A stretch of DNA of 8,861 nt. It comes from an uncultured archaeon. Its GTDB lineage: Archaea; Asgardarchaeota; Lokiarchaeia; Sigyniarchaeales; Promethearchaeaceae. A program made the translations under genes and the position numbers. Below the pieces are notes generated by a model. That model was given only the letters and a program-made list of their open reading frames with translations. It was not told the origin of the DNA and did not search any database. Location of the stretch: contig CAYRPF010000032.1 in the NCBI GenBank assembly GCA_964426185.1, positions 1 to 8,861 of the forward strand, written 5' to 3'. The number at the start of each line of letters is the position of its first letter. Position 1 is the first letter of the stretch. Of this stretch, positions 858 to 8,861 are shown piece after piece.

Positions 858-2306
858 TCATTCTTTAATTTCTTTAAGTATTTTTTCTTTGTCAGCTGAA
901 AGAAAATACTTAATTACAGGAATAACTACTATCGATTTCTCTTTTACTTCTTTACTTTCTTTACTTCCTTTACTTCCTTTACTTTGTTTACTTTGCTTAC
1001 TTTGCTTACTTTGCTTACTATGCTTACTATGCTTACTTTGTTTACGATTATAACTCTTATTATGATTATTATCTGCTTGTGTTTGCGGAATCTTAATTAT
1101 TTTATTTTCTTTCCAAGAAATAATATAGCCTTGGTCGATTTTAAATTGCTTCATAAATTTCATAAGTCCTTTTGTTTGAATTTTTCCAAATTTTACTTCA
1201 ATAGGATATAATTCTTTATTATCACCAACTAAAATTGCATCTACTTCATTTTGCTGAGAATTTCGCCAAAAAAAGTCCACTCCTAATAGTTTTATAACCG
1301 CCCATTCAAATATCTTTGACTTAGAGAGAACATCATTTTTGAATACAAGATCAACTGACACAATGCTTGGATAATAACGCTTTAGTTTTCGCTCCACTTT
1401 TCGTAAATCACGGGAAAAATTGTATAATTTTTTAATTAAGAATGAATTTTCCAAATAGGTAAGGTATTGGGAAATTGTTTGGCGAGTTTTGCCTAAATCT
1501 ACTGCTATTTTCGCAGGTTGAATAATTTGGCCAGGATTTTGATAAATTAACTTCAATAGGGTTTCTAAAAGAGAAATATCGCGAATATTATATGAATATG
1601 GAATTTCTTTGAAAAGAATTTTTTCCAAAAGGCTTTCTTCTAAATATTTTTTTATTATCTCTTGATCATGAATTCCTACAAGTTCGGGAAATCCTTGAGA
1701 ACGAATAAATTCATTCCATAATCCTTTTAATTCATGCTGATACAAAGAAATTGGAGAAAAATCATCAAAATTCTTTCCTTTAAACTTGATAAATTCTCTA
1801 AATGTCAAAGTATCTATTCTGAATAAGAAAATTCGGCCGGCTAACGTTTCTTTTGATGATTTTTGAATAAATAATGATTCAGAACCAGATAAAATTATTT
1901 TTATATTTGGATAAAGATCATAATACGTTTTTATCTGGTTTTGCCAGTTTCTCATTTTTTGAATTTCATCAAGTACCAATAGAATTCTTTCGCTCTGATA
2001 TTCAATATCTGTTAATTCTTCGAATTGGGCGAGAATTGTTTCCAATTCTTCGTTTTGAAATTCATCAAAAGAGAAATATAAAATATGTCTGTGCGAAAAA
2101 CCACGAGAAATTTCATTTTGAATTATTTTCTTCATTATCATAGTTTTTCCTACGCGACGAAGACCAACAAGGGCAATAATTTGTTTTAAAGGAAGATATT
2201 TCTCAATTTTTGATAGTATTTCTCGATATTTGAAGTCTAAAATAAATTCGAAATGAGTTTTCCACCATGGATTTGCCCTAATCATATACTCTGAAATTTC
2301 TACCAT
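858..2306 (-). CDS. AAA+ superfamily ATPase, COG1373-type (AAA_14 + winged HTH + DUF4143/PD-(D/E)XK-like C-terminus)
   Basis: N-terminal NPWW; Walker A GLRRVGKT; Walker B LLVLDEIQ; ILSGSES; ETLAGR; GFPE; HTH-like IAVDLGKTRQTISQYLTYLENSFLI; C-terminal FWRNSQQNEVDAIL...PIEVK. Confidence 0.9.
   Translation of the reverse strand: MVEISEYMIRANPWWKTHFEFILDFKYREILSKIEKYLPLKQIIALVGLRRVGKTMIMKKIIQNEISRGFSHRHILYFSFDEFQNEELETILAQFEELTDIEYQSERILLVLDEIQKMRNWQNQIKTYYDLYPNIKIILSGSESLFIQKSSKETLAGRIFLFRIDTLTFREFIKFKGKNFDDFSPISLYQHELKGLWNEFIRSQGFPELVGIHDQEIIKKYLEESLLEKILFKEIPYSYNIRDISLLETLLKLIYQNPGQIIQPAKIAVDLGKTRQTISQYLTYLENSFLIKKLYNFSRDLRKVERKLKRYYPSIVSVDLVFKNDVLSKSKIFEWAVIKLLGVDFFWRNSQQNEVDAILVGDNKELYPIEVKFGKIQTKGLMKFMKQFKIDQGYIISWKENKIIKIPQTQADNNHNKSYNRKQSKHSKHSKQSKQSKQSKQSKGSKGSKESKEVKEKSIVVIPVIKYFLSADKEKILKEIKE
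952..1045. repeat. In-frame 9-bp tandem repeat (~10 units, TTACTNNNY on +) encoding (SKH)2(SKQ)4(SKG)2(SKE)2 in the ATPase
   Basis: TTACT recurs every 9 bp at 952, 961, 970, 979, 988, 997, 1006, 1015, 1024 and 1033, with a partial copy at 1042. Confidence 0.95.
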
Positions 2307-2587: not shown

Positions 2588-2612
2588 TTAAGTGAAATTA
2601 AAATTTTTAATA

Positions 2613-3062
2613 ATGGATCAAGTTACTGATTTGCTTCAAAAATGGTTAGAAAATGTAATGCGATTATCCATGCAGAACTTCATTCTTTTTTCCAAAGAAA
2701 AAAATCTCTCCATGTCTCAAATAGGTGCTTTAATGTTTATTCACCGGCAATTTGAATGCGGAATATCTAATATAGGAGAAAAATTAGGAATTTCAAATGC
2801 AGCGGCCAGTCAAATGCTTGATAGATTGGTAAAATTGGGTTTAATCAGCAGGCAAGAGGATCCCAAAGATCGCCGGGGAAAAATTTTGACTTTAACCAGA
2901 AAAGGAAACCAAATTCTACAAGAATCCATAAAAATCCGTCAAAACTGGCAGAATGAACTCATGTGCTTATTAGATAATGAAGAGAAAAAAAAAATCAAAG
3001 AAGCTCTTAAAATCTTGATCCAGAAAACTAACGATTTTTTGCTTTCAAACAAAGAAAAATAA
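2613..3062 (+). CDS. MarR-family transcriptional regulator
   Basis: ~150 aa. LSMSQIGALMFI...ISNIGEKLGISNAAASQMLDRLVKLGLISRQEDPKDRRGKILTLTRKG is a MarR winged helix with the DxR wing motif. ATG 2613 is preferred over GTG 2592, which falls inside the operator region. Confidence 0.95.
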   Translation: MDQVTDLLQKWLENVMRLSMQNFILFSKEKNLSMSQIGALMFIHRQFECGISNIGEKLGISNAAASQMLDRLVKLGLISRQEDPKDRRGKILTLTRKGNQILQESIKIRQNWQNELMCLLDNEEKKKIKEALKILIQKTNDFLLSNKEK

Positions 3063-3078
3063 ACAAAAAATCCAAATT

Positions 3079-5361
3079 TTGAACGAAGAGAGACCAACAA
3101 AAATGGTGCACTTAACTAAATATACAAAACCCTATCTACCGATGATTTTGCTTGCAGTAGTACTACTTTTTGCACAGGCAAATTTTGATCTAGCCCTCCC
3201 CGATTATTTTTCCCGTATCGTAAACGTGGGAATTCAGCAAAATGGGATAGAAGATGCAGTTCCAATTACAATTCGTGAAAGCCAAATGAATCGGACTTTT
3301 CTCTTTATGAGTGAAGAAAACAAATCGCTGATATTAAACACGTATGATCTAAAATCAAATGAATCTGATGATTTTTTAGATCTTGTGGATAAATTTCCTA
3401 TACTTAGGAATGAAACTCTTTATATTCTTAATCAAGAAAAAGACAATGACACGGTTCATGAGCAAATAAATGAAGTATTATCGAGTGCTTTATTAGTTGT
3501 TTTTACCCTAGAACAGTTTCAATCAAATTCATCAGATTTTCAAAATTTAAATCAAAATTCCAACTTCTCCTTGGGATTTAATATGTCCATGATTCCACCA
3601 GGTATGGATCTTTTTAATTTTTTGAGTTTACTTCCACAAACGCAATTGTTGGAAATCAGAACCAGTATCAACCAACGTTTGCTTGCATTAGATGAAAACA
3701 TGTTGACTCAAGCTGCTGTATTCGCAGTAAAGGCAGAATATGAACAAATTGGAATAAACACAGAGAAAATTCAATTGAATTATATCTTTCGTGTTGGAGG
3801 ATTGATGCTTCTATTAACATTATTATCAGCTATTTGTACCATTATTGTTGGTTATTTATCAGCAAAAACCGCAGCAGGATTGGCAAAAGATTTAAGACAC
3901 GATGTTTTCGAAAAGGTGGAGTATTTTGCAAATGCAGAATTTGACCGATTTTCAACAGCCTCCTTAATTACTCGAACTACTAATGATATTACTCAAATCC
4001 AATTAGTCGTAATTATGATCATACGTTTAGTAGTTTATGCACCCATCTTGGGAATAGGGGGAATTATTCGAGCTTTTTCCAAAGATGCTTCCATGTGGTG
4101 GATAATTGCCATTGCAGTTGGTTTTTTAATAAGTTTGATACTTATTATAATAAAAATTGCACTGCCCAAATTCAAAAGTATTCAGAACTTAGTGGATCGG
4201 CTCAATTTGGTAGCCAGAGAGAATTTATCTGGTATTATGGTAATTCGTGCCTTTAATATGCAAAAATTCGAAGAAAAACGCTTTGATAAAGCTAATGCTG
4301 ATTTAACAGGAGTAAGTCTATATATTAACCGAGTTTTGGTGGTATTGATGCCAGTAATGATGTTTACCATGAATACTTTGGCTGCAACTATTATTTGGGT
4401 AGGATCTCATCGTGTAGCGGATGCAAATATGCAAATTGGTGATATGATGGCTTTTATGCAGTACGCAATCCAAATTGCCATGGCATTCTTAATGCTTTCC
4501 ATGATGTTTATCCTTCTACCCCGAGCTTCGGTTTCAGCCAACAGAATTGCGGAAGTCCTGGCTGTTGATCCATCAATAAAAGATCCGTCACAACCAATAA
4601 CATGGAATGAAAATTTTCAAGGTGTTGTAGAATTCGATAATGTTTCTTTCAAATATCCTGGTGGAGAAGCCAATGCTGTGGAAAATATTTCATTTACTGC
4701 CTATCCGGGAAAAACTACCGCCTTTATTGGAGCAACTGGTTCAGGAAAATCCACCTTGCTCAATTTGTTACTACGATTTTACGATGTATCTGAAGGTGCA
4801 ATTCGAATTGATGGAATTGATATTCGAAATGTTTCTCAGCACGCACTACGTGAGAAAATTGGTTATGTCCCGCAAAAAAATGTGTTGTTTTCTGGGACAA
4901 TTAAAAGTAATCTTCAATACGCCAACGCGAATGCTGATAACGAATTACTCACCCAAGCCATCCAAATCGCCCAAGCTGAAGAATTTGTAGAACAACTCCC
5001 GGAAAAATTGGAATATCCCATAGCACAAGGCGGTCAAAATGTTTCTGGTGGGCAGAAGCAACGATTGGCTATTGCTCGAGCCTTAGTTAAACAGGCACCG
5101 ATTAATATTTTGGATGATAGCTCTTCTGCTTTAGATTTTAAAACCGACGCCGCCTTACGACAATCTTTACGAGAAGAAATGAAAAATACAACCCTTTTAT
5201 TAGTAACGCAAAGAGTGGCAACAGTGATGAATGCCGATCAAATCATCGTGTTGGAAGATGGTTATTTAGTCGGAAAAGGAACACATCAAGAATTATTAGA
5301 AAAATGTGATGTCTATAAAGAGATCGCTTTATCGCAATTAGCTATGGAGGAATTACAATGA
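3079..5361 (+). CDS. Heterodimeric ABC exporter subunit A (TMD-NBD; TM287/EfrA-like) with a large extracellular insertion
   Basis: Six-TM exporter domain; Walker A GATGSGKST; Q-loop GYVPQ; signature VSGGQ; degenerate Walker B ILDDSSSALD and switch VTQR. Start is TTG 3079 or in-frame ATG 3103. Confidence 0.95.
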   Translation: MNEERPTKMVHLTKYTKPYLPMILLAVVLLFAQANFDLALPDYFSRIVNVGIQQNGIEDAVPITIRESQMNRTFLFMSEENKSLILNTYDLKSNESDDFLDLVDKFPILRNETLYILNQEKDNDTVHEQINEVLSSALLVVFTLEQFQSNSSDFQNLNQNSNFSLGFNMSMIPPGMDLFNFLSLLPQTQLLEIRTSINQRLLALDENMLTQAAVFAVKAEYEQIGINTEKIQLNYIFRVGGLMLLLTLLSAICTIIVGYLSAKTAAGLAKDLRHDVFEKVEYFANAEFDRFSTASLITRTTNDITQIQLVVIMIIRLVVYAPILGIGGIIRAFSKDASMWWIIAIAVGFLISLILIIIKIALPKFKSIQNLVDRLNLVARENLSGIMVIRAFNMQKFEEKRFDKANADLTGVSLYINRVLVVLMPVMMFTMNTLAATIIWVGSHRVADANMQIGDMMAFMQYAIQIAMAFLMLSMMFILLPRASVSANRIAEVLAVDPSIKDPSQPITWNENFQGVVEFDNVSFKYPGGEANAVENISFTAYPGKTTAFIGATGSGKSTLLNLLLRFYDVSEGAIRIDGIDIRNVSQHALREKIGYVPQKNVLFSGTIKSNLQYANANADNELLTQAIQIAQAEEFVEQLPEKLEYPIAQGGQNVSGGQKQRLAIARALVKQAPINILDDSSSALDFKTDAALRQSLREEMKNTTLLLVTQRVATVMNADQIIVLEDGYLVGKGTHQELLEKCDVYKEIALSQLAMEELQ
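5346..5351 (+). promoter_or_regulatory. Shine-Dalgarno GGAGGA before ABC subunit B; ATGA start/stop overlap (translational coupling)
   Basis: GGAGGA ends 6 nt before ATG 5358, which overlaps the TGA (5359-5361) of subunit A. Confidence 0.7.
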
Positions 5362-7265
5362 TGCGCAATAATTCTAGTTCAAACTCCCCAAAAACGGGGA
5401 AATATTCTCAAAACGAAAGAAAAGGTCCGCCAGGAATCCGAAGTAGACAACATGCAATGATGATGGCAGGCGATAAACCTCGTAATTTTAAACAAACGAT
5501 GGTCAATCTTGGTCAATATATGAAGGAATTTCGAGTTCAGATCATAATTGTTATTCTGTTTGCGGTTCTTTCGACTACTGCCAGTATTGTTGGACCTAAA
5601 ATCTTAGGTAAAGCTACTACAACCTTGTTCGAAGGAATTATTGCAAAATTAAACGGAACAGGTTCAATTGACTTCAAATATATTTCTTTGATAATTTTAG
5701 GAACCATAGGATTATACGCAATTTCCATGCTTTTTGCTTATATACAAGGCTGGATTATGGCGAAAGTTTCCACTACTGTGTCCTATAATTTCCGTCGAGA
5801 TATATCTCAGAAAATTAATCGGCTCCCCCTTAAATACTTTGATAATACCACGCAAGGCGAAGTTCTCTCACGGTTAACAAATGATGTAGATACTGTCAAT
5901 CAAACCCTAAGTCAAAGCCTATCACAAATAATTACTTCCGTGGTAACTGTGATTGGTGTTTTAACCATGATGTTTACAATAAATTGGATAATGACCTTAG
6001 CTTCTTTGGTAATAATTCCCTTATCTATTATATTTATAGGATTTATTGTCAAAAAATCCCAAAAATATTTTAAAGAACAACAAGATCAATTGGGGCACGT
6101 AAACGGCCATGTAGAAGAAATGTATGGTGGACATGTGGTTGTTAAAGCATTTAACGGCGAAGAAAAAAGTATTCAGAAATTTAATATCCATAATAACGCA
6201 CTGTACAACGTAGCATGGAAATCACAATTTTTGTCTGGATTGATGATGCCTATAATGCGTTTTATCAGCAATTTGGGTTATGTAGCTGTGGTGATTTTAG
6301 GAGGTTGGCTCGCGGGCACAGGTGCGGTAAGTGTAGGTGATATTCAAGCTTTTATTCAATACGTCCGATCTTTTACTCAACCAATGTCACAATTAGCTAA
6401 TATTTCCAATGTTTTACAGCAGACTGCTGCTGCAGCCGAACGAGTTTTTGAATTTCTTGGAGAAGAAGAAGAAATTCCAGACAATCCAAATCCAACACCA
6501 CTTCCCGAGGTAAAAGGAAATGTAGAATTTCAAAATGTTCATTTCGGTTATAAACCAGATAAGATCGTTATCAAAAATTTCTCCGCTAAGGCCCAACCAG
6601 GTCAAAAAGTGGCGATCGTAGGACCAACCGGTGCAGGAAAAACCACCATGGTAAAACTTTTGATGAGATTTTATGAACTCAACGACGGGGCCATATTAAT
6701 AGAAAATCACAATATTACCGATTTTACCCGGCGTGATTTACGCTCAATCTTTGGAATGGTGCTTCAAGATACTTGGTTGTATAACGGAACAATACTCGAA
6801 AACATCCAGTATGGAAAACCTGACGCCAGTTATGAAGAAGTGATTGAAGCTGCCCAAGCCGCCCATGTTGATCATTTCGTGCACACCCTTCCCGGTGGTT
6901 ATAACATGATGCTCAACGAAGAAACTACAAATATTTCTCAAGGGCAGAAACAACTACTCACAATTGCCAGGGCAATATTAGCCAATCCTAAGATTTTAAT
7001 CCTAGATGAAGCCACATCCTCTGTAGATACTCGAACAGAAATTCTCATTCAAAAAGCAATGGATAAGTTGATGGAAAATCGTACCAGCTTTGTAATTGCA
7101 CACCGATTGTCAACAATTCGAGATGCAGACTTGATTCTTGTAATGCGTGAGGGAGATATTGTGGAGCAAGGCACCCATAAAGAACTGTTACAAAAAGGTG
7201 GATTTTATGCTGAGATATACAATTCTCAATTCGAACATGTACCTTTATTAGCCACTCGAGAATAA
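5358..7265 (+). CDS. Heterodimeric ABC exporter subunit B (TMD-NBD; TM288/EfrB-like)
   Basis: Walker A GPTGAGKTT; GMVLQD; degenerate signature ISQGQ; consensus Walker B ILDEATSSVD; switch AHRL. Confidence 0.95.
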   Translation: MMRNNSSSNSPKTGKYSQNERKGPPGIRSRQHAMMMAGDKPRNFKQTMVNLGQYMKEFRVQIIIVILFAVLSTTASIVGPKILGKATTTLFEGIIAKLNGTGSIDFKYISLIILGTIGLYAISMLFAYIQGWIMAKVSTTVSYNFRRDISQKINRLPLKYFDNTTQGEVLSRLTNDVDTVNQTLSQSLSQIITSVVTVIGVLTMMFTINWIMTLASLVIIPLSIIFIGFIVKKSQKYFKEQQDQLGHVNGHVEEMYGGHVVVKAFNGEEKSIQKFNIHNNALYNVAWKSQFLSGLMMPIMRFISNLGYVAVVILGGWLAGTGAVSVGDIQAFIQYVRSFTQPMSQLANISNVLQQTAAAAERVFEFLGEEEEIPDNPNPTPLPEVKGNVEFQNVHFGYKPDKIVIKNFSAKAQPGQKVAIVGPTGAGKTTMVKLLMRFYELNDGAILIENHNITDFTRRDLRSIFGMVLQDTWLYNGTILENIQYGKPDASYEEVIEAAQAAHVDHFVHTLPGGYNMMLNEETTNISQGQKQLLTIARAILANPKILILDEATSSVDTRTEILIQKAMDKLMENRTSFVIAHRLSTIRDADLILVMREGDIVEQGTHKELLQKGGFYAEIYNSQFEHVPLLATRE

Positions 7266-7290
7266 CCCTCCAATGAAAATTCAATTATTT

Positions 7291-7410
7291 TATTCCCTTT
7301 TTTCACACTTTTCTTCACTTTTCTTCACTTTTTTTGACTTTTTTTGACTTTTCTTCACTTGTTCCCAATTTTTCCCATTTTTCTTACTTTTATTCAAAAT
7401 TTTCCCTTTC
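7291..7410 (+). repeat. 10-bp-period pyrimidine-rich tandem repeat (core TTYTTSACTT); probable terminator region
   Basis: TTTCACACTT, TTCTTCACTT x2, TTTTTGACTT x2, TTCTTCACTT at 7301-7360, with degenerate units on both sides. It starts just after the ABC stop codon. Confidence 0.85.
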
Positions 7411-7449
7411 TCTTTTAACGCTTTTTAAATCACACTTCTCATCAAGATT

Positions 7450-7477
7450 TAGAAATTTTTAATAGAAATTTTTAATA
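7450..7477 (+). promoter_or_regulatory. 13-bp tandem duplication (AGAAATTTTTAAT x2) containing a BRE/TATA-like element
   Basis: Copies at 7451-7463 and 7464-7476. The first TTTTTAATA lies ~24-32 nt upstream of ATG 7488. Confidence 0.5.
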
Positions 7478-7487
7478 TATTACAGCA

Positions 7488-8861
7488 ATGGCTCACTTAT
7501 ATCTGGCAGATAAATATCAAATACGAAAGCAATCTATTCAAAAACTTTCTGGCAAAGCTAAAACCAAAGATAAACAAACAGTAAGAGACAAAAAAGCTGA
7601 ACAAAGCTGGGGAGATACCATGGGCGGCATTCTAAAATTCATTAAGTGGGTTGACCGATACAAAATTTATCAAATCGCAAAATATCGCCCATTATCTGCT
7701 CTGAATGGATGGGGACATTTACTTGGAAGTCTAGTTTTTGGAACGTCTTATAAAATTCGTCGTAGGATAATGACCAGTTTAAAGGCATTACATCCACAAG
7801 CTTCGCAAAAAACTCTTGAACTAATGCTGAAAACTCATGTAAAGTACATGGGAATGTTTTTGATGGACATCATGTTCAGAATGCCCTTCATCTGCGATTA
7901 TCCTGAAGGGACACAAGTAAAGGAACTTAAATACTTAAATTTTGAACGATTAGATGAAGCACTTCAAAAAGGAAAGGGTGTAATCATTCTAATTCTCCAC
8001 ATCGGGCAACACTTCCATAATCCCGGCGGAATTTTTCTTCATCCCAAGAAATACCCAATGTCCGTTGTTGCCAGTGTAAAAAACCTTCCTATGTATGAAT
8101 TTAATAATCGTCCTCATTTTGACAATCTCTATATTTACGCAAGTACCAAATTCGCCCATATTGCTCCACAATTACGAAAGAGACTAGAAAAAAATGAAAT
8201 ATTAGTAATGTATCACGATTATTCCGCCAAAACGCAGTTAAAAGTACCTTTTATTACGGGAAAATTGCCTTTTTTAATTAACACACCTCAAAGTTATATT
8301 CGATTGCATCGATTAACCGGAGCTGAAATTTTACCATTAATCACATTACCCGACGGTGTTTTTGGAAAATCTAAACTTTTCTTTATTGATAATTCCAGCA
8401 TCAAAAATATCTCGCAGCAATTTTGGGATGCCCCTATGGAAGAATTTCACGGGAGAATGTCTACAGAAATCAACCGAATAATGTATCCTTGGGTGGTAAA
8501 ATATGCGCCATGGTGGGAAGAATTAATGCGACTTGCGGGCATGCGGAGTAAAGACGAATTAAAGATTCCAGCAAACATTACACTGAAGGAATTTCTATCT
8601 CTTATCCAGGAAAAAATGCACGTGGTTATCGATGGAAGTTGGGAACCAGGTCGAAAAGATTCAGATTGGATGGAAAGCATCGATCAAACATTTCAGAAAA
8701 TCTTTCAAAATTTGAAATCTCCCGAGGTTCTATTCAGAGAGCATAAATCAAGGATAAATTTAACATGCATGACCGGTCAACAAGAAATGCAAAAATTAAC
8801 CCAAATCGCTAAACAAGAGTGTGAGAAAAAAGGGGAAAAAACCTCGGCTGGTTATCTTTCG
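7488..8861 (+). CDS. LpxL/HtrB-like (lipid A biosynthesis acyltransferase family, LPLAT superfamily) acyltransferase with C-terminal extension; 3'-truncated by the window edge
   Basis: My translation gives 458 codons with no stop (MAHLYLADKY...SAGYLS). Family motifs appear in order: FERLDEALQKGKGVIILILHIGQH, LEKNEILVMYHD, KVPF, RLHRLTGAEILP, EINRIMYPWVVKYAPWW. Absent from the ORF track because no stop is in the window. Alternative ATG at 7620 has GGAG upstream. Confidence 0.8.
   Translation, partial: MAHLYLADKYQIRKQSIQKLSGKAKTKDKQTVRDKKAEQSWGDTMGGILKFIKWVDRYKIYQIAKYRPLSALNGWGHLLGSLVFGTSYKIRRRIMTSLKALHPQASQKTLELMLKTHVKYMGMFLMDIMFRMPFICDYPEGTQVKELKYLNFERLDEALQKGKGVIILILHIGQHFHNPGGIFLHPKKYPMSVVASVKNLPMYEFNNRPHFDNLYIYASTKFAHIAPQLRKRLEKNEILVMYHDYSAKTQLKVPFITGKLPFLINTPQSYIRLHRLTGAEILPLITLPDGVFGKSKLFFIDNSSIKNISQQFWDAPMEEFHGRMSTEINRIMYPWVVKYAPWWEELMRLAGMRSKDELKIPANITLKEFLSLIQEKMHVVIDGSWEPGRKDSDWMESIDQTFQKIFQNLKSPEVLFREHKSRINLTCMTGQQEMQKLTQIAKQECEKKGEKTSAGYLS

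Follow-up and report, generated by a model that had tools for sequence, protein, structure and literature searches.

Introduction

Among the known systems closest to the protein reported here are PatA, a phosphatidylinositol-mannoside acyltransferase (M. smegmatis and M. tuberculosis Rv2611c; PDB 5F2T, 5F2Z, 5F34 and 5OCE), and LpxM/LpxL/LpxP, the secondary acyltransferases of lipid A (A. baumannii LpxM; PDB 5KN7 and 5KNK). In PatA, E200 lies 2.8 Å from H126 and forms a charge relay, and the H126A and E200A mutants are dead (PMC4792965). The Asp located five residues after the histidine (position +5), D131, has a structural role, and the D131A mutant retains 37% activity (PMC4792965). LpxM, in contrast, depends on its +5 Glu, the PDB entry 5knk being titled "catalytic residue substitution (E127A)". 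Our literature search returned no paper tying Asgard archaea to LpxL/PatA-type enzymes.

Here we describe a gene that encodes a member of the PatA/LpxL-fold (LPLAT) acyltransferase family and lies at the 3′ end of a window of 8,861 nt (the whole stretch of DNA that was analyzed). The features of the gene and of the DNA that precedes it are the following:

7266-7487 (+): intergenic stretch of 222 nt between the ABC gene and the acyltransferase ORF (sequence, Tandem Repeats Finder)
7288-7404: T-rich tandem repeat with a 10-11-nt unit (Tandem Repeats Finder)
7450-7477: exact 13-nt x2.2 A/T-rich repeat (TAGAAATTTTTAA), directly before the ATG (Tandem Repeats Finder)
7488-8861 (+): acyltransferase CDS, first 458 of 472 codons, long Lokiarchaeial form (ORF, PF03279, P0004)
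7488-7619 (+): residues 1-44, conserved N-terminal motif followed by a Lys/Arg-rich linker, predicted to be disordered at 20-44 (alignment, AF2)
7614-7685 (+): residues 43-66, amphipathic helices, likely a PatA-like peripheral membrane anchor and not transmembrane (AF2 model, hydrophobic moment)
7620-8552 (+): residues 45-355, LPLAT alpha/beta catalytic core (VIA-align, Foldseek, hhalign)
7971-7979 (+): G162-K-G164 loop ahead of the catalytic strand, G164 invariant (49 long-form sequences)
7998-8018 (+): block-1 motif H171-I-G-Q-H-F176-H177, with H171 as putative catalytic His and F176 at the canonical +5 Glu/Asp site (MAFFT bridge, hhalign)
8211-8219 (+): Y242-H243-D244, with D244 (8217-8219) as the block-3 acid and proposed charge-relay partner of H171 (alignments)
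8304-8336 (+): L273-H-R-L-T-G-A-E-I-L-P283, the TGA...P block common to classical LpxL/PatA (alignments, hhalign)
8514-8522 (+): W343-E-E345, with W343 at the place of the classical C-terminal "QW" motif, where the LPLAT core ends (hhalign)
8553-8861 (+): residues 356-458 of 472, family-specific C-terminal domain (separate fold prediction)
8637-8654 (+): S384-W-E386-P-G-R389, S-x-E-P-x-R loop of the C-terminal domain (alignments)

Results

The Gene and Its Archaeal Host

The ORF at 7488-8861 (+) runs for 458 codons with no stop and is open at the window's 3′ end. The complete protein is 472 aa long, as judged from P0004, a near-identical database protein that differs from the window protein at two residues; the stop falls ~45 nt beyond the window end, inside a stretch read as N in the genome. 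In alignments the homologs keep an N-terminal M-A-H-[IL]-[FY]-x-A-D-K motif from Met1, which supports this start codon. The 222-nt gap to the ABC gene argues for a promoter belonging to the acyltransferase gene and would disfavor cotranscription with the ABC genes.

The window derives from contig C32 of a 3.26-Mb, 92%-complete MAG with 34% GC. The host is an archaeon of the Lokiarchaeia (Promethearchaeota). No 16S rRNA was found in the MAG assembly; the genome encodes the archaeal ribosomal protein S3Ae (rpS3Ae). The closest homolog, 70-72% identical, lies on a 4.36-Mb contig of Ca. Harpocratesius repetitus FW102, which a genome search placed in the same GTDB genus as the window genome, and residual synteny is evident in the two ABC exporters upstream and a convergent gene of ~300 aa downstream. 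Further homologs sit in closed chromosomes, beside TFIIB in Promethearchaeum syntrophicum MK-D1 and beside the S19-L22-S3-S4e ribosomal cluster in Ca. Lokiarchaeum ossiferum, and a basal member of the long form shares its contig with fibrillarin and Nop56/58. Thus rpS3Ae, the FW102 synteny and the homologs in closed archaeal chromosomes exclude contamination by a diderm, and the archaeal origin that the initial annotation had raised as a condition of its reading is borne out.

Family Membership and Predicted Fold

PF03279 (Lip_A_acyltrans) matches residues 67-257 of the protein with 28.5 bits against a gathering cut-off of 22.3 (E 1.1e-6), in agreement with the description of the frame as an LpxL/HtrB-type ORF of at least 458 aa. 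The term "unlisted", also applied to it, is not strictly correct, since some homologs already bear the names "LpxL/LpxP family acyltransferase" or "lauroyl/myristoyl acyltransferase" in NCBI and JGI annotation. None of the NCBIfam equivalog models for LpxL, LpxM or PatA was reached, all scoring 16-28 bits against cut-offs of 209-491. Specifically, PatA proper (NF005919) gave 15.9 bits against 209, and the models for LpxL/LpxP/LpxM proper (TIGR02207, NF006432, NF006507 and others) gave 16-27.5 bits against 281-491. With equivalog scores so far under the cut-offs, the profiles place the window protein as a distant PF03279 member that is the ortholog of no characterized enzyme.

An AF2 model built from the family alignment reached a pLDDT of 84.9 and a pTM of 0.85. 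PatA is its best structural match: VIA-align superposed the model on PatA (5f2z_B) with Z 21.4 and an rmsd of 2.8 Å over 245 residues (model range 35-355). The corresponding Z was 20.9 for LpxM (5kn7) and only 8.3 for GPAT, and Foldseek with the model gave an E value of about 2e-9. The LPLAT fold and LpxL-PatA kinship proposed from the letters of the sequence thus hold for the model as well as for PF03279. At the profile level, hhalign paired the long-form profile with that of classical HxGNWE proteins (probability 99.9, E 3e-32) and matched the W343 region to the classical Y-P-x-Q-W; in the wide set W343 is found in 87/90 and E344 in 84/90 sequences. Given that the family profile returned nothing at E<=1 when compared directly with PDB sequences, the link to PatA was made through the classical relatives and through structure.

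The database names, together with the MsbA-like ABC exporters upstream, could suggest that the contig is diderm contamination carrying a usual bacterial LpxL/LpxM, or that the protein works on lipid A. This reading is refuted by the homologs in closed archaeal chromosomes, by the synteny of the contig with Harpocratesius and by the equivalog scores. Moreover, the 92%-complete genome yielded no match to LpxC, LpxB or KdtA (PF03331, PF02684 and PF04413), whereas control diderms were positive, and the adjacency to ABC genes is interrupted in the closest relative. There, ~6.7 kb of unrelated small genes separates MarR and two MsbA-like ABC genes from the homolog.

The Active Site

The motif H171-I-G-Q-H-F-H177 lies at 7998-8018, and the "MYHD" sequence considered as a possible source of a second acid comprises residues 241-244. 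In a MAFFT bridge through the classical relatives, H-I-G-Q-H-F stacks column for column on H-x-G-N-W-E, and D244 falls on the conserved Asp of the classical "GDR/DQ" block; hhalign gave the identical pairing. HMMER in turn placed the "GDR" Asp of the classical protein P0128 opposite the Glu of the PatA M-A-E-R (chain residue 196, native E200), and the same numbering offset takes chain H122 to H126. Hence the match of D244 to E200 is a two-step one, from long form to classical proteins (MAFFT bridge and hhalign) and from P0128 to PatA (HMMER). At the level of alignment, these comparisons show that H171 is equivalent to PatA H126 and D244 to PatA E200.

H171 is present in 75/75 sequences of the wide set, where it matches the His of HxGNWE. 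The +5 position, residue 176, is Phe in 48, Leu in 10, Ile in 5, Thr in 4, Val in 2, Met in 2 and Gln and Asn in 1 each, and is never Asp or Glu, among ~74 long-form representatives. The HX4(D/E) acid is therefore truly missing, as had been noticed, and it is missing family-wide, so that this copy is not a decayed version of one that its homologs keep. Judged from the alignments, loss of the acid is a conserved family trait and not decay, because H171 is invariant and +5 is never acidic in these representatives. D244, for its part, is kept in 79/80 long-form sequences, and the Asp is found in 41/42 classical relatives. In 49 diverse long-form sequences reaching down to about 18% identity, the sole invariant columns are G164, H171 and D244, the pattern to be expected of a working active site over such deep divergence.

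The check that had been proposed, on the conservation of HIGQHFH among homologs, bears out its first histidine. Among the 24 closest homologs, H171, G173 and H177 are all invariant; across 74 long-form representatives H177 is His in only 48, a moderate conservation, and the position of H175 is His in 11 and Phe in 44. The two extra histidines are present in the window protein, as stated in the initial annotation, and are not family features. A metal site or new catalytic residues formed by them were rejected as a family feature on the same counts.

The alignments thus favor a family that keeps the PatA-type His-acid pair and has lost a residue that PatA does not need for catalysis. The suggestion that the Asp of MYHD completes the dyad is supported by its invariance in the 49-sequence set and its place opposite PatA E200. 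Conversely, the "changed chemistry" that had been drawn from the missing acid does not follow and is not needed, since D244 is invariant and equivalent to E200, the real charge-relay acid of PatA, an enzyme that tolerates D131A. If the family were to follow LpxM and not PatA, loss of the +5 acid could lower or abolish activity. The protein would then be a pseudoenzyme that binds lipids or acyl-CoA or serves as a scaffold, and the absence of the HX4(D/E) acid from every long-form member, the reliance of LpxM on its +5 Glu and the gain of an extra C-terminal domain would all be consistent with this. We hold it to be unlikely, as a PatA-type pair kept among the sole invariants (H171, D244 and G164) at deep divergence is hard to explain in a protein whose activity is gone, and the +5 acid is dispensable in PatA. 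We therefore favor an active enzyme: the window protein is probably an acyltransferase whose acceptor is other than lipid A, as judged from its alignments and predicted structure.

Terminal Regions

Residues 20-44 have AF2 pLDDT values below 50, and residues 1-45 contain 11 Lys/Arg compared to 5 Asp/Glu. The model has helices at 43-57 and 60-66, and residues 41-58 combine a hydrophobic moment of 1.48 with a mean hydropathy of about 0. No TM segment was found in P0004, in which the highest Kyte-Doolittle 19-residue mean is 1.17, in line with the earlier remark that there is no clear N-terminal TM helix. In three homologs this mean was also <=1.45, and the peak was never N-terminal.

The C-terminal domain (about 356-472), when predicted by itself, gave a pLDDT of 93.6 and consists of two beta-hairpins and four helices. 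The S, E and R of its S-x-E-P-x-R loop are invariant in two family alignments and are found in 83/90 (S), 85/90 (E) and 88/89 (R) sequences of the wide set. A wide VIA-align search for structural relatives returned generic ferritin/Dps-like helical bundles at a best Z of 6.9, Foldseek returned nothing at E<=1e-3 and an atlas search no look-alike. The Dps/ferritin resemblance was dropped as nonspecific, given this Z and the empty Foldseek result.

Distribution and Evolution

When 1.84 billion representatives were searched exhaustively with phmmer, 125 proteins were recovered at E<=1e-3. About 90 of the 125 are of the long form, with 440-480 aa and common C-terminal markers, and classical HxGNWE proteins of ~300 aa surface only at E 1e-6 to 1e-3. 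All long-form matches in named species-representative genomes belong to Promethearchaeota (Harpocratesius, Lokiarchaeum, Promethearchaeum and Sigynarchaeum). Only 6 of 301 genomes sampled across the phylum carry the family; the carriers belong to the window's own GTDB family (4/6, plus the window genome) and to one other family of the same class, and 0/69 genomes of a sister family in the same order have it. There are two copies in the window genome, five in L. ossiferum, nine in MK-D1 (some in tandem) and one in Sigynarchaeum. The family is Lokiarchaeia-restricted and multicopy.

In a FastTree phylogeny of the catalytic core (110 rows, arbitrary root), the proteins with a +5 acid all fall on one side and the acid-less proteins form a nested group, within which the long forms make up one clade with 95% support. 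The basal branches of this clade, with moderate support (80-95%), are short proteins that have no +5 acid either, one of them from a Desulfobacterales MAG. This placement suggests that loss of the +5 acid preceded both the gain of the C-terminal domain and the origin of the archaeal family. The tree is compatible with, and not proof of, a single transfer from bacteria to the archaeal family.

Gene Context, Donor and Acceptor

The neighborhood of the window's subfamily gives no clue to the acceptor, because it is not conserved: no common operon was found, and the neighbors differ in MK-D1, L. ossiferum, Harpocratesius and a JGI contig. We also rejected "LpxL next to MsbA" as a meaningful pairing and regard it as coincidental, on account of the ~6.7 kb of other genes that intervenes in Harpocratesius. 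The acceptor cannot be lipid A, as searches of the genome revealed no Raetz pathway, and to this extent (LpxC, LpxB and KdtA having gone undetected) the changed substrate anticipated from the sequence is upheld.

The genome contains eight AMP-binding (acyl-CoA-synthetase-type) genes and three PlsC-type acyltransferases. No stand-alone ACP was detected, the sole PP-binding match sitting within a 2459-aa open frame. With eight AMP-binding genes and no stand-alone ACP, acyl-CoA would be the likelier donor. By analogy with the two closest structures, the most economical guess for the acceptor is a hydroxyl on the sugar or lipid part of a membrane glycolipid.

The protein might instead be a glycerolipid or lysolipid acyltransferase acting on glycerol-phosphate-type backbones, which would give mixed ester/ether membranes in Asgard archaea. 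Its fold belongs to the LPLAT superfamily and matches GPAT at Z about 8, and acyl-CoA synthetase genes and the three PlsC-type acyltransferases are at hand. We regard this as improbable, however, because the closest neighbors in structure (Z about 21) and in sequence are PatA and LpxM, enzymes whose targets are hydroxyls of sugars or acyl chains, with GPAT/PlsC at Z about 8, and because dedicated PlsC-type enzymes are already present in the genome.

A Paralogous Clade Paired with a Rag-Like GTPase

The second copy in the genome, P0003 on contig C37, is 35% identical to the window protein and begins where a 437-aa Gtr1/RagA-Arf-like GTPase gene ends. A GTPase gene is located immediately upstream on the same strand in 6/6 members of the P0003 clade examined, from two genera and two metagenomic contigs; the pair was found in Harpocratesius FW102, a congener, L. 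ossiferum and the two metagenomic contigs. The gap between the two genes is 0-49 nt, with one case in which a 121-aa ORF lies in between. The G1, G3 and HKxD motifs of the GTPase are of the Rag type; its C-terminal region is roadblock-like, and its tail is acidic. Inspection of the paired GTPases for lipidation motifs revealed no Gly2 and no C-terminal Cys. A GTPase neighbor was seen at no other copy, including the window gene and all nine MK-D1 copies. We take the pairing as a lead to the partners of the family and not as evidence on the window gene.

The same pairing in all six P0003-type members could indicate a protein-directed role, in which the enzyme acylates, or is controlled by, Asgard Rag-like GTPases or acylates another protein or glycan. 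This we consider very unlikely, as the window protein's subfamily and the nine MK-D1 copies have no GTPase neighbor and the GTPases are without the Gly2 and C-terminal Cys lipidation motif. We know of no LPLAT-fold enzyme that acylates proteins, which likewise counts against it. Our literature search for Rag with acyltransferase or lipidation returned nothing relevant.

Discussion

The reading that best accounts for these data as a whole is a Lokiarchaeia-restricted, multicopy LPLAT family of peripheral acyltransferases with an H171-D244 dyad and a non-lipid-A acceptor, to which we assign a probability of roughly 0.65. Within it, we infer the catalytic activity, the acyl-CoA donor, the membrane-peripheral site, the kind of acceptor and what the C-terminal domain does. 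In the proposed mechanism, the N-terminal amphipathic helices and basic linker would hold a peripheral enzyme at the membrane, where it would act as an O-acyltransferase, moving a fatty acyl chain, with acyl-CoA as the most likely donor, onto the hydroxyl of a membrane-associated acceptor. H171 would serve as the general base and D244 as its charge-relay partner, and the canonical +5 acid would be dispensable, a hydrophobic residue taking its place across the family. The acceptor would most plausibly be a glycolipid or polar-lipid head group and not lipid A, and the C-terminal domain with its SxEPxR loop would probably contribute acceptor or partner recognition. Counting against this reading, published lipid analyses of MK-D1 reportedly show ordinary archaeal isoprenoid lipids.

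A more far-reaching proposal, which we offer as speculation and consider doubtful, is that Asgard archaea of the Loki type have expanded a private PatA-like family that attaches fatty acyl chains to archaeal membrane glycolipids or another membrane acceptor, with one branch functionally coupled to a Rag-like GTPase. If true, it would connect, within archaea, eukaryote-type GTPase switches to the acylation of lipids or proteins, and hybrid ester-acylated lipids would have a source in the lineage nearest to the cultured Asgards. How Asgard archaea use fatty-acyl chemistry matters for the "lipid divide" and for the way in which the archaeal ancestor of eukaryotes handled membranes. The family is multicopy in both cultured Lokiarchaeia and absent from the other Asgard families sampled; because MK-D1 and L. 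ossiferum are grown in the laboratory, its product is open to direct lipidomics and biochemistry. As a natural experiment, the family also informs on the LPLAT active site: a whole clade without the HX4(D/E) acid has retained the PatA-type block-3 acid, and this pattern supports the charge-relay model of PatA outside mycobacteria.

Three known systems serve for comparison. The short (~300-aa) acid-less bacterial PF03279 proteins, such as the Desulfobacterales MCJ7773404.1 (P0135) with the motif HLGNFLI, are also without the +5 acid. They have no C-terminal domain, are only distant kin (E 1e-4 to 1e-6) and are uncharacterized. LpxM/LpxL/LpxP share with the window protein PF03279, the fold (Z 20.9) and the GKG, H-x-G, D (block 3), TGA..P and QW blocks. 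LpxL and LpxM, however, have an H-x-x-x-x-E dyad and an N-terminal TM helix, whereas the window protein has neither the +5 Glu nor a TM helix; they also need Kdo2-lipid IVA, and the window genome yielded no LpxC, LpxB or KdtA. PatA, like the window protein, has N-terminal amphipathic helices and no TM helix, and both keep the catalytic His and the block-3 acid (E200 corresponding to D244), although the two are only 14% identical. PatA has Asp at +5 where the window family has Phe, Leu or Ile, and its block-3 acid is Glu, compared to Asp in the window family. The archaeal host also lacks the PI-synthase/PimA operon context of PatA, with no such neighbors in five gene contexts, and relative to PatA the window family adds a C-terminal domain of ~115 aa and an N-terminal extension of ~45 aa. 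The variant is archaeal, domain-extended and new within the PatA/LpxL acyltransferase family.

Conserved neighbors of the acyltransferase genes

One paralog clade of this acyltransferase family, to which its second copy in the window's own genome belongs, keeps a GTPase gene as neighbor.

13084-15597 of contig C37 (L002:1363-4094), minus strand: P0003 acyltransferase and Rag/Gtr1-Arf-like GTPase

P0003, a paralogous acyltransferase of 472 aa, lies directly 3' of the 437-aa GTPase gene, and this pairing is kept in 6/6 clade members (Harpocratesius, L. ossiferum, two metagenomic contigs). The acyltransferase gene of the window itself is convergent with a gene located just past the window end.

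8977-9876 of contig C32 (L001:2990-3889), minus strand: 299-aa gene matching PF00198 (E 3.3e-10)

The match is to the catalytic domain of 2-oxoacid dehydrogenase/CAT-type acyltransferases, and a response-regulator receiver gene comes after it. In Ca. Harpocratesius repetitus FW102, a 302-aa counterpart of the PF00198 gene and a HATPase_c/Response_reg gene are likewise found downstream of the acyltransferase homolog. Family members also neighbor one another: the P. syntrophicum MK-D1 chromosome contains two tandem duplicate pairs among its nine copies (2573595-2576498 and 3793182-3796115), and genome G285 contains one tandem pair (C165:188-2984).

Genes and repeats upstream of the acyltransferase in the window

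858-2306, minus strand: AAA_14/DUF4143 ATPase ORF
2592-7265: gene for a MarR regulator, then a pair of MsbA-like ABC half-transporters
7288-7404, intergenic: T-rich 10-11-nt tandem repeat, ~11 copies
7450-7477, shortly before the acyltransferase ATG: exact 13-nt repeat TAGAAATTTTTAA, 2.2 copies

The first half-transporter (760 aa, TTG start) carries an N-terminal extension of ~225 aa ahead of its ABC_membrane match, and the two ABC ORFs overlap by 4 nt (5358-5361). Together with the MarR gene, they look like a regulated heterodimeric exporter; the adjacency of these genes to the acyltransferase is not kept in other genomes. The two repeats upstream of the acyltransferase gene, the longer of which comprises units such as TTTTCTTCACT and TTTTTTGACT, possibly have a promoter or regulatory role. 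A separate 9-nt repeat (11.6 copies, 943-1045) within the ATPase ORF translates into a run of (S-K-Q/H/G)n tripeptides close to the ATPase C-terminus.

Other acyl, carrier and lipid genes

C9:60456-60656: PP-binding (carrier protein) domain within a 2459-aa open frame
C6:50670-52012 and C5:28862-29230: three PlsC-type (PF01553) acyltransferase genes
L025:11408-12490, minus strand: CTP_transf_1 gene (weak match), convergent neighbor of P0072

The window's genome, an Asgard MAG, has only this one PP-binding domain, and the very large open frame around it possibly encodes a megaenzyme resembling NRPS/PKS systems. Two of the three PlsC-type genes adjoin each other on C6; PF01553 was found in 0/4 archaeal control genomes. 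Beside P0072, one divergent metagenomic family member, the CTP_transf_1 gene is of the CDP-alcohol/CDP-archaeol synthase type, by a weak match only, and two further divergent members (loci L023 and L024) have AMP-binding genes at a distance of 4-9 kb. These neighbors weakly hint at a lipid context.
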